A stretch of DNA of 46,158 bases from IMG/VR virus record IMGVR_UViG_3300010356_000385. One strand, given 5' to 3'. The notes beneath the pieces are model-generated. The model was not told where the DNA came from, searched no databases, and saw nothing but the letters and a program-made list of their open reading frames with translations. How positions within the stretch are numbered: the first letter of the stretch is position 1; the number at the start of each line of letters is the position of its first letter. A program made the translations under genes and the position numbers. This stretch comes from a virus. Of the stretch, positions 3,150 to 45,053 are shown in pieces.

Positions 3150-3262
3150 ACCAGTTCAGTAGGGGCGAACAGTACAACAGCTTAAACCCTTTCGGGAGTA
3201 TAGGGATCGAACCTACTAATTTCTTGGAAAGAAATCTTAGCCAGAAGTATCTGTTGTTTCGC
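3150..3262 (-). ncRNA. Second, degenerate tRNA-like module
   Basis: On the minus strand there is a 7-bp hairpin ATTTCTT-TCC-AAGAAAT. A T-arm GTAGG-TTCGATC-CCTAT (3216-3200) follows, then a CCC-GAAA-GGG hairpin (3196-3187). The D-arm is not canonical. Confidence 0.4.
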
Positions 3263-3269
3263 ACCCCCT

Positions 3270-3398
3270 GATGTAGGGGTCAAGTGTTACAGTATATTTA
3301 GCGCTCTACCATCTGAGCTAACGCCCGAAGGCGTGTTGGATTTGAACCAACGACCTCTCCTTTATCATAGGAAGTAACTGTAACTTAACCCTACTAAA
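3270..3398 (-). ncRNA. yrlA: YrlA-type Y RNA candidate with a circularly permuted tRNA-like domain
   Basis: The minus strand reads AGGTC, then the T-arm GTTGG-TTCAAAT-CCAAC. Next is a closed acceptor hairpin ACGCC-TTCG-GGCGT, then TA, then the D-arm GCTC-AGATGGTA-GAGC (3356-3301). An imperfect long stem closes the module: GTAGGG/CCCTAC, AAG/CTT and TTACAG/CTGTAA (3394-3376 with 3296-3273). Confidence 0.7.
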
Positions 3399-4398: not shown

Positions 4399-4579
4399 AT
4401 AGATTGTTAAGAACCAACCAGTCTTTCATAGCTCCGATAGCGGTATCTTTAGAGTATGCCCCTATTTTTACCACCCTCTCTCCCTCTTTGAGTAACTCCA
4501 TACTGAACCCTTCCTTTGCTTTGATCCATTGTATTTTGTAGTTACTCGGGATCTTCTTGTTGAGTTGTGTTATTGTCAT
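4391..4579 (-). CDS. Hypothetical protein (62 aa)
   Basis: ATG ORF in the operon. Confidence 0.5.
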   Translation of the reverse strand: MTITQLNKKIPSNYKIQWIKAKEGFSMELLKEGERVVKIGAYSKDTAIGAMKDWLVLNNLYV

Positions 4580-5186
4580 TTTGTTCTAATAATAATTTAA
4601 TTTCTTCCTCACACTCCCCGATCTTCTTAATCCAGTCTTCGGTGTATTTTAGTTTTTCTATCTCGTATGTACCGTCTGTTTTAAACACAACAAGGGCTAA
4701 TTTATCTGTCCCATTATCAGCGTATGAGTACATACTTGTTTGGTACGCAACCTTTTTGATCTTAGAAGAGTCTCTTTTATACTTCCCGTTCCAAGCTCCG
4801 TAGGTTTTACTATCACATAAATACTCTTCACCATCTATAATGACTTTCATATCATATGTACCTGCGTATCCGAACTCATCGCAATATACGGGTTGTTCAC
4901 ACGCAACTACTTTATATGCCCCTAGGAAGTCCTCTACGGCTGTTTTAAGCCCTGTTTCCTTGGCAATGGTACAAGGACTGTCCAATTCGCTAATTCCTAG
5001 CGTAGCGTTCTCTATCCACTCGCTAACCTTAGTCCCCATTCTCGCACTATCTCTTTTGATTTTCTCTGGATCGTGTCCATTGGCTTTGCACCATTTTTCA
5101 AATCCCTCATCGTTGAATGGAAAGAAAATATTAATAAGTTGTGTTACCGATATATAATCTTTCCCGTCTTTTGTATATCTTGCCAT
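4542..5186 (-). CDS. PD-(D/E)XK family nuclease (RecB/Cas4/YqaJ-like exonuclease)
   Basis: GTYDMKV..YLCDSKT fits the D..(D/E)xK core, and QTSMY fits the QxxxY motif. Confidence 0.6.
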   Translation of the reverse strand: MARYTKDGKDYISVTQLINIFFPFNDEGFEKWCKANGHDPEKIKRDSARMGTKVSEWIENATLGISELDSPCTIAKETGLKTAVEDFLGAYKVVACEQPVYCDEFGYAGTYDMKVIIDGEEYLCDSKTYGAWNGKYKRDSSKIKKVAYQTSMYSYADNGTDKLALVVFKTDGTYEIEKLKYTEDWIKKIGECEEEIKLLLEQNDNNTTQQEDPE

Positions 5187-11621: not shown

Positions 11622-11924
11622 ATGAAGATAACGATAAGTATTCCGCAGAAGGTGTATGACGAGTTAGAGGGTTTGAGAGGTAGGGTTCCTAGGAGTACAT
11701 ACATACAGGGTTTGATCCAGGAGGTGGGTAATGCGAAGAAGAGGGAGATATTGGAGCGTGGTTTTGATTCTGATGTTAGTTATAGTGATAGTGAGCCGAT
11801 AAGTGGTACGAGTATGGAGGCGGTAGCGGGTCTTGGTAGTATGGGTAAGAAGAAAGCCGTTAAGGGTTCTAAGGAGTTGCCTAGTCAGGGAGAGGGTGAG
11901 TTTAAGACGTATTTTAAGAAGTAG
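11622..11924 (+). CDS. Ribbon-helix-helix (CopG/Arc/MetJ-like) DNA-binding protein
   Basis: The N-terminus KITISIPQKVYDELEGL..VPRSTYIQGLI fits a beta-strand/helix/helix pattern. It is the first gene of the rightward arm. Confidence 0.55.
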   Translation: MKITISIPQKVYDELEGLRGRVPRSTYIQGLIQEVGNAKKREILERGFDSDVSYSDSEPISGTSMEAVAGLGSMGKKKAVKGSKELPSQGEGEFKTYFKK

Positions 11925-11945
11925 TTAAATTAAGTTATAGATCTT

Positions 11946-12410
11946 ATGGATTTTTATACTATAAAGGTGGAGTGCATTAATTGTTCTCAGTACACGGGGG
12001 TTTTAAAGATAGACAAGGGTACGAGGATAGTGGACGCATTAAGGAGAGAGGGGTGTCCTGTGTGTGGTTGTAAGACGTTGAGTAGGGTTAAAGAATTAAG
12101 TTGGTATACTACTAATAGTTCAGACAATACAATTAGTGTTGGTAGTTGTAGGGAGCCAGAGTTTCCGACTGTTTATGCTGCGTCTTTTAAGGATTCTCCA
12201 GTATGGATTTGTGGAGATTGTGGTGGTAAGTATGGTCGTGGTGAGTGTGGTCTTGCCACTTGGCACGAGGACAGGTGTGATATTTGTGGGTTAACTACGT
12301 TTGTGACTGAGCCAAGGGATTTTGGTGGTTTAAGGAGTGATTTTGCTAAACTTCGGGCTACGGAGGTGGAAAATGGAACAGATGATTCCTTTTCAGATGA
12401 TAAGGCATAA
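11946..12410 (+). CDS. Cys-rich zinc-finger protein (154 aa)
   Basis: Several CxxC pairs: CINC, CPVCGC, CGDCGG, CDIC. Confidence 0.6.
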   Translation: MDFYTIKVECINCSQYTGVLKIDKGTRIVDALRREGCPVCGCKTLSRVKELSWYTTNSSDNTISVGSCREPEFPTVYAASFKDSPVWICGDCGGKYGRGECGLATWHEDRCDICGLTTFVTEPRDFGGLRSDFAKLRATEVENGTDDSFSDDKA

Positions 12411-12657
12411 TGATGATAATGGTATTAGTGGTACTGGGGTAGTGTTAGACGGGGTAATATTTCCAAATGGTAGGGTGGTGGTGTGTTGGAAAGCTGGTAA
12501 TGGTAAAAGTAAGTGTGGTAGTATTAATATATACGACAGTATAGAGGATTTTGAGGACATTCATGTGACTCATCATCCTGGGAATGGGACAGAATTAGTG
12601 GGTTATGATCTTGATGCGGAGGTAGAGCAGCGGCAGCTTGCTAGTCTCATAAACTAG
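12373..12657 (+). CDS. Hypothetical protein (94 aa from the ATG at 12373)
   Basis: GGAGGTGG lies 4 nt upstream of the ATG, whereas the track start at 12337 is GTG. The last 14 codons run into tRNA-Met. Confidence 0.5.
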   Translation: MEQMIPFQMIRHNDDNGISGTGVVLDGVIFPNGRVVVCWKAGNGKSKCGSINIYDSIEDFEDIHVTHHPGNGTELVGYDLDAEVEQRQLASLIN

Positions 12658-12690
12658 AGGTCAGGGGTTCGAGTCCCCTCCCCGCAACCA
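12614..12690 (+). tRNA. tRNA-Met: tRNA-Met (anticodon CAT; elongator or Ile2-type), CCA encoded
   Basis: Anticodon arm CTAGT-CTCATAA-ACTAG, T-arm AGGGG-TTCGAGT-CCCCT, acceptor TGCGGAG/CCCCGCA, then A and CCA. Confidence 0.85.
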
Positions 12691-12701
12691 GCTCTTTAAC
12701 A

Positions 12702-12775
12702 GGTGGCGTAGCCCAATTGGCAGAGGCTCCGATCTCAAAAATCGGCCAGTGTTGGTTCGAGTCCAGCCGTCACTA
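12702..12775 (+). tRNA. tRNA-Leu-like: Class-I-shaped tRNA with Leu anticodon CAA (74 nt, 5-nt variable loop, no encoded CCA)
   Basis: Reads GGTGGCG TA GCC-CAATTGGCAGA-GGC T CCGAT-CTCAAAA-ATCGG CCAGT GTTGG-TTCGAGT-CCAGC CGTCACT A. Confidence 0.8.
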
Positions 12776-12776
12776 A

Positions 12777-12850
12777 GCGCGTGTATCCCAATTGGCAGAG
12801 GAAGCTGTCTTAGAAACAGTTGAGTGCAAGTTCGAGTCTTGCCATGCGCA
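12777..12850 (+). tRNA. tRNA-Leu-like: Class-I-shaped tRNA with Leu anticodon TAG (74 nt, no encoded CCA)
   Basis: Reads GCGCGTG TA TCC-CAATTGGCAGA-GGA A GCTGT-CTTAGAA-ACAGT TGAGT GCAAG-TTCGAGT-CTTGC CATGCGC A. Confidence 0.8.
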
Positions 12851-12854
12851 CTTT

Positions 12855-12928
12855 GGATAGGTAGTCCAATTGGCAGAGACAGCGGACTTAAAATCCGTCC
12901 AGTGAGAGTTCGACTCTCTCCCTATCTA
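12855..12928 (+). tRNA. tRNA-Leu-like: Class-I-shaped tRNA with Leu anticodon TAA (74 nt, no encoded CCA)
   Basis: Reads GGATAGG TA GTC-CAATTGGCAGA-GAC A GCGGA-CTTAAAA-TCCGT CCAGT GAGAG-TTCGACT-CTCTC CCTATCT A. Confidence 0.8.
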
Positions 12929-12929
12929 C

Positions 12930-13013
12930 GGAAGATTGGCAGAGTGGTAATGCAGCAGTCTTGAAAACTGTAACGGTTAAATGCCGTCAGAGGTTCGAAT
13001 CCTTTATCTTCCG
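12930..13013 (+). tRNA. tRNA-Ser: tRNA-Ser (TGA), class II
   Basis: Anticodon arm GCAGT-CTTGAAA-ACTGT, long variable arm AACGGTTAAATGCCGTC, T-arm AGAGG-TTCGAAT-CCTTT, discriminator G. Confidence 0.85.
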
Positions 13014-13015
13014 CT

Positions 13016-13103
13016 GGAAAGTTGACAGAGCGGCTGATTGTGCTTCTTTGCTAAAGAAGTGGGTGTAAAAGCCTCGTGGGTTCGAATCCTACACTTTCCG
13101 CCA
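13016..13103 (+). tRNA. tRNA-Ser: tRNA-Ser (GCT), class II, CCA encoded
   Basis: Anticodon arm CTTCT-TTGCTAA-AGAAG, long variable arm, T-arm GTGGG-TTCGAAT-CCTAC, acceptor GGAAAGT/ACTTTCC, then G and CCA. Confidence 0.85.
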
Positions 13104-13104
13104 A

Positions 13105-13191
13105 GCAAGTACTGTAGAGACGGTGAGCTACGCTTGTCTGTAAAACAAGTCCTTTCGGGGTGTATAGGTTCGAATCCTATTACTTGCACCA
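13105..13191 (+). tRNA. tRNA-Tyr: tRNA-Tyr (GTA), class II, CCA encoded
   Basis: Anticodon arm CTTGT-CTGTAAA-ACAAG, variable arm TCCTTTCGGGGTGT, acceptor GCAAGTA/TACTTGC, then A and CCA. Confidence 0.85.
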
Positions 13192-13234
13192 GTGTTATTA
13201 GAATGGTATAAAATATTAAGATCTTTAAAAACAT

Positions 13235-13309
13235 GGTGGATATGGTTTATTGGTAAAATACCCTGCTGTGAACAAAGAGAAATTGGTTCGATTCCAATTA
13301 TCTACCCCA
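13235..13309 (+). tRNA. tRNA-His: tRNA-His (GTG) with genome-encoded G-1, CCA encoded
   Basis: An extra 5' G lies opposite discriminator C. Anticodon loop is CTGTGAA and the T-arm is ATTGG-TTCGATT-CCAAT. The anticodon stem CCCTG/CAAAG has two C-A mismatches. Confidence 0.7.
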
Positions 13310-13310
13310 T

Positions 13311-13386
13311 GCGAGATTCGTTTAATGGATCAGGATGACTGCCTTCCAAGCAGTGGGTATGGGTTCGATTCCCATATCTCGCACCA
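13311..13386 (+). tRNA. tRNA-Gly: tRNA-Gly (TCC), CCA encoded
   Basis: Anticodon arm ACTGC-CTTCCAA-GCAGT, T-arm ATGGG-TTCGATT-CCCAT, acceptor GCGAGAT/ATCTCGC. The D-stem is weak. Confidence 0.8.
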
Positions 13387-13387
13387 G

Positions 13388-13462
13388 GCTTCTGTAGCTT
13401 AACAGGTAAAGCTGCTGATTTGTAACCAGCCGTTTGAGGTTCGAGTCCTTGCAGAAGCTCCA
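13388..13462 (+). tRNA. tRNA-Thr: tRNA-Thr (TGT), CCA encoded
   Basis: Anticodon loop TTTGTAA, D-arm GCTT-AACAGGTA-AAGC, T-arm TGAGG-TTCGAGT-CCTTG, acceptor GCTTCTG/CAGAAGC. Confidence 0.8.
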
Positions 13463-13463
13463 T

Positions 13464-13538
13464 TAGGGAGTGGTCAAATGGTAAGACGACTGGCTTTGAA
13501 CCAGTAGACTCTAGGTTCGATTCCTAGTTCCCTAACCA
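13464..13538 (+). tRNA. tRNA-Gln: tRNA-Gln (TTG), CCA encoded
   Basis: Anticodon arm ACTGG-CTTTGAA-CCAGT, T-arm CTAGG-TTCGATT-CCTAG. Confidence 0.85.
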
Positions 13539-13539
13539 T

Positions 13540-13614
13540 GGGCTTATAGGCTAATTGGAAAACTATGTCACTTGCAATGACAAGTTCTGAGTTCGATTCT
13601 CAGTAGGTCCACCA
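13540..13614 (+). tRNA. tRNA-Ala: tRNA-Ala (TGC) with a G3-U70 pair, CCA encoded
   Basis: Anticodon arm TGTCA-CTTGCAA-TGACA. Acceptor GGGCTTA/TAGGTCC places a G-T pair at position 3-70. The D-arm is degenerate. Confidence 0.7.
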
Positions 13615-44213: not shown

Positions 44214-45053
44214 TTATTTGTTTAGGTTATATATTAAAGATGATCCGTCACCACCCATTACTTGTGGAAGTTTACCGTCCCATTTTTCTAACCACATTTT
44301 CTGTAGTATTTGTTGGGAAAGTTCCTTGGTTTGTAGTCTGTTTTGTTCTGCTATCGCCTTTGCTTTTTCGACGTCTAATTTAGCCTTTTCTACCTCGGCC
44401 TCTTTGTCTGTAATGGCCTTCTGCTTTTCATACTGAGCCTTTTGAGCCTCCTGTTCTGCAACCTGTTTTGCCTCGATAGCCTTATCAAACTCTTCACTAA
44501 AGGTGATATCTGTTACAGAGATGTCATCGATATATACCCAGTATGTTAATAGCCTTTCGGATAGTTTTACATCTATAACGGTTTTAACCTCTTCTCTTTT
44601 TGTTAATAGCTCCTCAGCCTTATATTGTGAGAAAGAAGCTTTTACGACCTCTTGTATTGCTGGGTATATGACTTTATCAAAAAGCTTGTCATCATCACCA
44701 AGGTTACTAAATATATCAGAGGTATCTGCTCCTTGAATGTGGTAGTTTAGTACGATAGAAGTGTTAACAGTTTGAAGATCCTTTGTTCCAGCACCAGCGT
44801 TAGCGTCTGCTCTTTTTATTTTTGTATCAAACCTTGTTACACCCTCGATGATTGGTGCTTTGAAGTTTAATCCTGGATTCATTTCTCTGCCTGTTGCACG
44901 TCCAAATCTTGTTACGACGCCGACCTCCCCTTGTCGAATTATAGTAAAACTGCTTAGGATAATTATCAGCGCTAAGAACCCCACAATGGAATAAGAGATC
45001 CTTTTTATCCAGAGTTTAGTCTGTTTCTCTTCGTAAGTTAATTCTGTGTCCAT
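44214..45053 (-). CDS. SPFH/band-7 (prohibitin/HflC-like) membrane protein (279 aa)
   Basis: An N-terminal TM segment, then IIRQGEVGVVTRFGR..GLNFKAPIIEGV..DLQTVNTSIVLNYHI and a coiled-coil AEQEAQKAQ tail. Confidence 0.75.
   Translation of the reverse strand: MDTELTYEEKQTKLWIKRISYSIVGFLALIIILSSFTIIRQGEVGVVTRFGRATGREMNPGLNFKAPIIEGVTRFDTKIKRADANAGAGTKDLQTVNTSIVLNYHIQGADTSDIFSNLGDDDKLFDKVIYPAIQEVVKASFSQYKAEELLTKREEVKTVIDVKLSERLLTYWVYIDDISVTDITFSEEFDKAIEAKQVAEQEAQKAQYEKQKAITDKEAEVEKAKLDVEKAKAIAEQNRLQTKELSQQILQKMWLEKWDGKLPQVMGGDGSSLIYNLNK

Follow-up and report, generated by a model that had tools for sequence, protein, structure and literature searches.

Transfer RNAs for leucine that lack a long variable arm have been characterized in Streptomyces coelicolor, where a type I tRNA-Leu(CAA) with the variable loop A44-C45-A46-G47-C48 is leucylated by the organism's own leucyl-tRNA synthetase (LeuRS) with a kcat/Km of 6.25 s-1 uM-1, five nucleotides being the shortest loop for good charging (Fan et al., NAR 2019, PMC6614811). 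According to the same study, the LeuRS of E. coli and that of S. purpurogeneiscleroticus do not charge this tRNA, no prokaryotic LeuRS other than the S. coelicolor enzyme (ScoLeuRS) is known to charge tRNA-Leu of both types, and the type I form is described as rare and specific to Streptomyces LeuRS. On class-I tRNA-Leu across phages, the full-text literature turned up, besides the Streptomyces study, only passing or indirect mentions: a mycobacterial genome paper reports a tRNA cluster that includes a tRNA-Leu(TAG) with a short loop (PMC6582537), and for M. tuberculosis only tRNA-Leu-2, -3 and -5 are named as long-armed (PMC11541572). Here we analyse three consecutive tRNA genes with the anticodons CAA, UAG and UAA in the IMG/VR virus record IMGVR_UViG_3300010356_000385, a stretch of 46,158 nucleotides that we refer to as the window. 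We consider it probable that this trio consists of functional type I tRNA-Leu elongators, charged by LeuRS, which decode leucine codons of the phage.

The three genes lie on the + strand and each extends over 74 nt to the discriminator base, at 12702-12775 (tRNA-Leu(CAA)), 12777-12850 (tRNA-Leu(UAG)) and 12855-12928 (tRNA-Leu(UAA)). All are recognized by ARAGORN and Rfam, a structure parse gave a class-I shape, and for each the best hidden Markov model (HMM) was that of short Leu tRNAs. ARAGORN calls them as Leu(caa) 12702-12775, Leu(tag) 12777-12851 and Leu(taa) 12855-12929, and the full Rfam model RF00005 (gathering score 29) matches them over its positions 1-71 with 49.7, 57.4 and 56.7 bits, respectively, the E-values computed over the whole window being 1e-7 or lower. 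Given these E-values and the covariation of the family described below, the features of the trio are not due to chance. All four stems are intact in each tRNA, the T loop, the D loop and U33 are canonical, and A73 and U8-A9 are found in all three. In the Rfam alignment the anticodon loops CUCAAAA (CAA), CUUAGAA (UAG) and CUUAAAA (UAA) are in register. Position 13:22 is non-standard there, leaving a D stem of 3 bp, and the variable region contains a single inserted base, which excludes a hidden long arm. A mis-registered anticodon loop or a cryptic long arm, the two errors that the first-pass annotation of this DNA had thought could undo its description, are thus ruled out by the Rfam alignment, and neither appears in the ARAGORN structures.

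The D loop CAAUUGGCAGA is common to the three tRNAs, with the D arms GCC-CAAUUGGCAGA-GGC (CAA), UCC-CAAUUGGCAGA-GGA (UAG) and GUC-CAAUUGGCAGA-GAC (UAA); in DNA letters, the parsed ARAGORN structures and the raw sequence read GCC-CAATTGGCAGA-GGC, TCC-CAATTGGCAGA-GGA and GTC-CAATTGGCAGA-GAC. The variable loops have five nucleotides each, CCAGU in the CAA and UAA tRNAs and UGAGU in the UAG tRNA, for which ARAGORN reports GAGT by drawing a sixth anticodon-stem pair. The 1:72 pair is G1.U72 in the CAA and UAA tRNAs and G1-C72 in the UAG tRNA, and the 3:70 pairs are U-A, G-C and A-U. The 3′ tails A|G (CAA), CTTT (UAG) and C|G (UAA) encode CCA in none of the three; the UAA tRNA is followed by a single C and then by a tRNA-Ser. 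ARAGORN, Rfam and the raw sequence therefore agree with the earlier description of three adjacent 74-nt tRNAs with these anticodons, A73, 3-bp D stems and five-nucleotide loops, and the tails likewise bear out its claim that no CCA is encoded. A variable arm of at least 10 nt with its own stem, as in class II tRNAs, is present in none of them. Each has the 73-76-nt body, the Leu anticodon and the variable loop of about 5 nt ending in pyrimidine 48 that define type I tRNA-Leu, and also the shared type I core (U8-A9, 3-bp D stem, D loop CAAYYGGCAGA, A73). The three had also been called paralogous, which holds in so far as they belong to the same family; they are, however, only 63-68% identical (stems 45-48%, loops 87-94%) and resemble one another no more than they resemble the Leu tRNAs of unrelated phages, with best matches of 70-75%. 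They are thus long-separated family members and not recent duplicates, and a recent triplication is ruled out by stems that are only 45-48% identical.

Seryl-tRNA synthetase (SerRS) and the bacterial tyrosyl enzyme (TyrRS) use the long variable arm, on which bacterial LeuRS does not depend; SerRS also uses G73, and G3:U70 is a determinant for alanyl-tRNA synthetase (AlaRS). The trio has no G3:U70, an A as discriminator and no long arm, and so lacks the features of an Ala-like or Ser-like identity. In a gapless alignment of 74 columns containing 35 short tRNA-Leu sequences, the trio included, U8, A14, A15, G18, G19, U48, G53, U54, U55, C56, A58, C61 and A73 are invariant (35/35). The elements of E. 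coli LeuRS recognition, namely A73, A14, A15-U48, G18/G19-U55/C56 and U54-A58 (PMC6614811), all fall within this invariant set, and U8:A14, A15:U48 and U54:A58 are present in the trio. The cloverleaf is 98.9% paired across the alignment, with changes on both sides in 19 of 20 pairs and a covariation score of 1.016, compared with 0.237 after shuffling and at most 0.19 with slid structures. The covariation indicates that the short tRNA-Leu family is under selection as a folded tRNA.

Isotype HMMs point in the same direction; they were built from phage tRNAs after masking the anticodon and removing the variable region. The short-Leu model was the best for each member of the trio (UAA 51.0, UAG 47.1 and CAA 40.7 bits), followed by the long-arm Leu model for the UAA (37.9 bits) and UAG (28.4 bits) tRNAs. 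Among 61 short Leu tRNAs, the long-arm Leu model was the best other model in 26 and ranked first or second in 38; for none of five control isotypes was it one of the four models that most often came out as best other model.

Written 5′ to 3′, CAA, UAG and UAA are anticodons that pair with UUG, CUA and UUA, which disposes of a role as stop-codon suppressors. The CAA tRNA reads UUG, the UAG tRNA reads CUA and, by U34 wobble, other CUN codons, and the UAA tRNA reads UUA and also UUG. This fits the codon use of the phage: the 877 Leu codons in 56 long open reading frames (ORFs) are distributed as TTA 35%, CTT 21%, CTA 18%, TTG 18%, CTG 4% and CTC 4%, and TTA, TTG and CTA, which the trio anticodons pair with directly, make up 71%. 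The remaining Leu codons could be covered by the UAG tRNA through U34 wobble. In the same ORFs AGA and AGG account for 89% of Arg codons and ATA for 48% of Ile codons; the array in which the trio lies contains, by ARAGORN, neither a tRNA-Arg(UCU) nor a tRNA-Ile(UAU), nor any Lys, Asn, Glu, Val, Phe or Cys tRNA.

Short tRNA-Leu genes are common in phages. A pattern for tRNAs of class-I length with the D loop of the trio matched at least 120 contigs in IMG/VR, and ARAGORN found 981 tRNAs in the 120 loci analysed. Variable regions of 6 nt or less occurred in 63 of the 102 Leu tRNAs, 6 had 7-9 nt and 33 had 10 nt or more; all 63 Ser and all 38 Tyr tRNAs had at least 10 nt, none falling into either of the shorter classes. 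That the arm is lost in Leu and never in Ser or Tyr tRNAs of this sample is consistent with a need for the arm on the part of SerRS and TyrRS, but not of LeuRS. In a less biased subset of 90 loci, in which the pattern was borne by a non-Leu tRNA, roughly 40% of the Leu tRNAs were short (21 of 52, with 2 intermediate), and a short Leu tRNA was present in 16 of the 28 Leu-bearing loci. Short and long Leu tRNAs occur together in 13 of the 120 loci. A73 and a 3-bp D stem were each found in 62 of 69 short Leu tRNAs, whose commonest anticodons are caa (21), tag (20) and taa (19). Roughly one in three of the phage family members has no encoded CCA. Two short subtypes can be distinguished, that of the window with U8-A9, C13 and a variable loop NNAGU, and one with long-arm-like G9/G13 and a loop such as GUUCU. 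The D loop AATTGGCAGA in itself is ruled out as a Leu-specific signature, as it is found in IMG/VR also in Asn, Lys, Thr, Trp and Gln tRNAs. Four of the loci (L013, L025, L014 and L073) contain CTA-anticodon, amber-suppressor-like tRNAs that ARAGORN labels 'Pyl', and two of these (L014 and L073) also contain tmRNA genes.

Deposited phage genomes carry annotated examples as well: Leu(TAG) and Leu(TAA) of 73 nt in Acinetobacter phage vB_AciJM_313, two short Leu tRNAs (74 and 75 nt) and a long one (86 nt) in Mycobacterium phage Lukilu, a Leu(TAG) of 74 nt beside a Leu(TAA) of 84 nt in Enterococcus phage EFDG1, Leu tRNAs of 74 and 75 nt in Lactobacillus phage Bacchae, and tRNA-Leu of 73 nt in Prochlorococcus phage P-SSM7 and of 76 nt in Rhizobium phage P106B. 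Escherichia phage mistaenkt, whose host is K-12 MG1655, has a complete tag/caa/taa trio of 77, 78 and 79 nt with CCA according to ARAGORN (74-76 nt to the discriminator) alongside Ser tRNAs of 90 and 93 nt, and a trio of the same lengths is found in Citrobacter phage Moogle; the Leu(UAG) of phage T5, with 85 nt, is of the ordinary long-armed form. For the Moogle-like phage Sf14, the Leu isotype model of tRNAscan-SE ranks first for Leu_TAG, Leu_CAA and Leu_TAA with scores of 67.4, 49.1 and 60.2 (PMC12482277), which serve here as a proxy for the window trio. At blastn sensitivity, 5,426 complete E. coli genomes gave no match to a trio-like sequence. The G1.U72 pair is present in 15 of the 35 aligned phage tRNAs and in 9 of 122 chromosomal bacterial ones among the matches listed; E. 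coli LeuRS contacts the G1-U72 pair of tRNA-Leu(UAA) (PMC6614811).

The same form is also found in bacterial chromosomes. We scanned one genome per GTDB species with the pattern CCAAYYGGCAGAG-N21-23-AGY-N4-GTTCGA, which gave at least 120 loci. Among the matches listed, 118 of 121 lie inside calls of 74-nt tRNA-Leu (taa 68, caa 35, tag 11, gag 3 and cag 1). At 109 loci no other tRNA lies within 8 kb, and many of these loci come from complete chromosomes or from contigs of megabase size. Judged by their record titles, about 109 of the 120 loci listed belong to Actinomycetota (Nocardia, Mycobacterium, Corynebacterium, Gordonia, Rhodococcus, Amycolatopsis, Nocardioides and others) and the other 11 mostly to Planctomycetota. 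All matches listed have A73, and their commonest variable loops are CCAGT (46), TCAGT (20) and ACAGT (19), the first being the loop of two of the three window tRNAs; the latter are 73-79% identical to the best of these matches and so about as near to them as to their best phage relatives. To judge from these genomes, the chromosomes of Actinomycetota ordinarily have a class-I-shaped tRNA-Leu for UAA, CAA and UAG. The statement that bacterial tRNA-Leu is class II, on which the first-pass annotation had built, was therefore too general. Since class-I tRNA-Leu is chromosomal in Actinomycetota and annotated in many deposited phage genomes, the trio is much less exceptional than had been assumed.

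The trio is part of an array of 15 tRNAs on the + strand (12615-14193) specifying Met, Leu (three), Ser (two), Tyr, His, Gly, Thr, Gln, Ala, Trp, Asp and Pro, which is flanked on one side by small ORFs of the + strand (11622-12657) and on the other by the terminase genes, and is oriented like the terminase and structural genes downstream. The Ser and Tyr tRNAs retain long arms, as had been noted before, with variable regions of 17 nt in Ser(tga), 15 nt in Ser(gct) and 13 nt in Tyr. Spacers in the array are mostly 0-3 nt, which suggests that the array is transcribed as one precursor. The trio and the adjoining Ser(tga) form a run of four tRNAs without encoded CCA (12702-13014), while the other 11 members encode it, which suggests that the four differ from the rest of the array in origin or in processing route. 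We thus envisage that the trio would be expressed together with the rest of the array as a single precursor, that RNase P would make the 5′ ends and that the 3′ ends would be trimmed to A73. As no CCA is encoded, the CCA-adding enzyme of the host would then have to finish the 3′ end. Bacterial LeuRS depends neither on the anticodon nor necessarily on the long arm; what it reads are A73 and the tertiary contacts of the core (U8:A14, A15:U48, G18G19 with the T loop, U54:A58), which the trio possesses, and the LeuRS of the phage's host would charge the three tRNAs with leucine. By decoding UUG, UUA and CUA, and other CUN codons by wobble, they would benefit the phage as a Leu set of its own matched to its AT-rich codon use. 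Of the three options considered initially, the best supported is this one, in which compact tRNAs charged by LeuRS serve the AT-rich Leu codons; it is backed by the recognition elements, the HMMs, the leucylated precedent from Streptomyces and the 71% of codons that are paired directly.

The window probably represents a complete, circularly assembled genome. Its ends are identical over 149 nt (1-149 and 46010-46158), giving a unit of 46,009 bp that is circular or terminally redundant, and the same contig is present in two public assemblies with differing start points; the GC content is about 39%. The terminase TerL (14754-16151) has no counterpart in GenBank phages above 34% identity, the matches being T5-like phages of Stenotrophomonas, Pseudomonas and Rhizobium, and the portal protein has an SU10_portal Pfam domain and gave no match in tblastn against GenBank phages. 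Near-identical DNA was not found among GenBank phages, and a search of IMG/VR and the JGI metagenomes with a TerL peptide pattern confirmed no relative; phage relatives, with TerL identities of 95%, 80% and 57%, came solely from a large protein search. No host assignment was reached from the TerL comparison and the Ro60-like proteins, which are scattered over many phage groups. The actinobacterial look of the trio cannot serve as a host signal either, because phages of E. coli, Enterococcus and other bacteria carry the same form.

At the array locus the closest relatives, L252 and L253, whose TerL is 95% identical at the amino acid level, have only tRNA-Thr and tRNA-Pro, a relative with 80% TerL identity has no tRNA, and one with 57% has Gln, Trp and Cys on the opposite strand. 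The blastn alignment with L252 stops at window position 12333 and restarts at 13388, and the intervening block (12334-13387, + strand), with a small ORF and the tRNAs for Met, Leu (three), Ser (two), Tyr, His and Gly, is absent from the closest relatives. The trio, as part of this block, is accordingly accessory cargo in the phage lineage. The locus is an indel hot spot, with three segments that are extra relative to L252 (12334-13387, 13460-13621 and 13734-14116) and hold 13 further tRNAs. The small ORF of the block (12337-12657, +), whose 3′ end overlaps the start of tRNA-Met (12615), matches PHROG 7499 and has a listed Pfam hit to PF26761 'Acb5'; a Pfam scan of its 106-aa version found nothing.

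Several points weigh against an assignment of the trio as LeuRS-charged elongators. The runner-up HMM of the CAA tRNA was the Asn model and not long-arm Leu. The D-loop pattern used for the IMG/VR sample enriches short Leu tRNAs, so that the overall counts given above are biased towards them. The relatives with 95% TerL identity do without the trio, which must hence be dispensable for this type of phage. Charging would depend on the host enzyme, as the E. coli and S. purpurogeneiscleroticus LeuRS are reported to fail on the S. coelicolor type I tRNA (PMC6614811). Phages of K-12 nevertheless carry the trio; either other LeuRS accept the U48 form found in phages, or the trio serves another purpose.

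One such purpose would be protection. The three tRNAs could be Leu-charged replacements whose short form was selected to escape nucleases or toxins that recognize the arm or the anticodon-loop flanks of host tRNA-Leu. Host systems exploiting the class II variable arm are known for Tyr (Septu, retron-Eco7) and Ser (MenT3), the short form is present in phages whose hosts have nothing similar (the 5,426 E. coli genomes searched), all six Leu codons are in principle within reach of the trio, and the block that contains it comes and goes among nearly identical phages, a behaviour often seen in counter-defence cargo. In the case of the T5/T6 tRNA-Tyr and retron-Eco7 or Septu (PMC13096335), the phage likewise has a copy of a class II isotype with a variable region unlike that of the host; there, however, both the nuclease and the cleavage site are known, whereas no system directed against tRNA-Leu or its arm was found in the literature searched. 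We know of no tRNA-Leu-directed defence system. Moreover, the same array retains long arms on both Ser tRNAs and on Tyr, short and long Leu tRNAs are found together at 13 phage loci, and the same architecture is ordinary in Actinomycetota chromosomes, which makes a defence rationale unnecessary. An evasion role is conceivable by analogy, and we regard it as a rather unlikely explanation of the trio. It is similarly doubtful that arm loss is a phage strategy in a wider sense, by which class-I tRNA-Leu would have spread across phages of many phyla because it escapes a host factor that recognizes the tRNA-Leu arm, be it a nuclease or a toxin of the MenT or PtuAB kind. If this were true, LeuRS well outside Actinobacteria, for example that of E. 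coli, would have to charge the U48 form, and charging by LeuRS of the E. coli type would contradict the published Streptomyces-only view.

We think it improbable that the trio represents uncharged decoys that soak up, for instance, LeuRS or a host nuclease, or decaying pseudogenes left from the acquired block. Such a fate would agree with the absence of an encoded CCA, with the absence of the trio from the nearest relatives and with the reported inability of E. coli LeuRS to charge one type I tRNA-Leu (PMC6614811). Decay is nevertheless difficult to reconcile with intact stems, canonical loops and U33 and Rfam scores of 50-57 bits, and the family is under purifying selection with compensatory changes across unrelated phages. 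Ser(tga) and about a third of the family likewise have no CCA, as is to be expected in hosts that possess a CCA-adding enzyme. Least credible, and disfavoured among the initial options, is an identity switch in which a synthetase other than LeuRS charges the trio and inserts another amino acid at UUG, UUA and CUA: the class-I shape does remove one feature that sets Leu apart from other isotypes and the Asn model is runner-up for the CAA tRNA, but none of the three has G3:U70 or the SerRS long arm, their anticodons match no anticodon-reading synthetase, A73 and the LeuRS core elements are invariant in a family that includes essential actinobacterial chromosomal genes and a biochemically leucylated member, and recoding 71% of the Leu codons would disrupt every phage protein.

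Elsewhere in the window and its relatives, some further features were observed. In relatives with about 80% TerL identity, the TerL homologues P0004 and P0005 (810-813 aa; locus L254, 1787-4228) contain a LAGLIDADG_3 (PF14528) insertion, which is probably an intein or a homing endonuclease. An orthologue of Ro60/Rsr is encoded at 1399-2826 on the - strand (Pfam TROVE 2e-22, Ro60 vWA 2.7e-9; PHROG 850 'RNA-binding protein'), with tblastn matches in 404 GenBank phage records; in Citrobacter phage Moogle an 'RNA-binding protein' gene adjoins the tRNA array. About 450 nt upstream of the Ro60 gene and on the same strand, 3273-3392 is a candidate YrlA-like Y RNA (RF02553, full model, 37.7 bits, E=1.8e-6), scoring under the gathering score of 69, and a weak 136-nt match to the tRNA model (3192-3327) overlaps it. 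The - strand also encodes an SPFH/Band 7 family protein (44214-45053, 2.8e-35) and an exonuclease-like protein (4542-5186, PHROG 298).

For the window itself the outcome is mainly a correction: the trio is real, its members are very probably ordinary leucine tRNAs, and there is no sign of recoding. The compact tRNA-Leu is of a kind already known, common in phages and normal in Actinobacteria, which has been little publicised. Forms without the arm make up a large share of the phage tRNA-Leu sampled, and in Actinomycetota chromosomes they are standard for the rare-codon Leu isoacceptors. The presence of the trio in phages of K-12, set against the published view that restricts type I to Streptomyces, bears on the question of whether bacterial LeuRS accept it more generally.

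The trio can be compared with four kinds of tRNA-Leu. With the class II tRNA-Leu of E. coli and T5 it shares A73, the 3-bp D stem, U48, an anticodon that is irrelevant to identity and a D loop of 11 nt in which A14, A15, G18 and G19 occupy equivalent positions, the loop sequence being GAAUUGGUAGA in E. coli and CAAUUGGCAGA in the window. It differs from class II by the missing long arm and by A9 and C13 in place of the G9 and G13 or A13 of long-armed Leu. Among the phage tRNAs, A9 with C13 is found in 38 of 60 short forms and G9 with G13 or A13 in 27 of 33 long ones. Animal mitochondrial tRNA-Leu(UUR) has degenerate D and T loops and a dedicated LeuRS, whereas the window loops are fully canonical. 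Human mitochondrial tRNA-Leu is not charged by ScoLeuRS (PMC6614811).

The phage carriers such as mistaenkt and Moogle have the same architecture as the window, often with the CAA/UAG/UAA trio and in arrays with long-armed Ser and Tyr tRNAs, and the mistaenkt tRNA-Leu(UAG) is among the nearest relatives of the UAG and UAA tRNAs of the window (72-75%). Their backbone is nevertheless unrelated to that of the window, whose TerL is at most 34% identical to that of any GenBank phage and whose portal is without a match, and the mistaenkt and Moogle trios encode CCA, in contrast to that of the window. Compared with actinobacterial type I tRNA-Leu, the window has a tight array in a phage of 39% GC instead of solitary chromosomal genes, G1.U72 in two of the three tRNAs, and U at position 48, which is C in the S. 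coelicolor tRNA. The variable loops are ACAGC in S. coelicolor, CCAGT, TCAGT or ACAGT in the genome matches and CCAGT or TGAGT in the window. In all other respects compared, the actinobacterial form is like that of the window, with 74 nt, a five-nucleotide loop, A73, U8-A9, the D arm NCC-CAAYYGGCAGA-GGN and the anticodons UAA, CAA and UAG.

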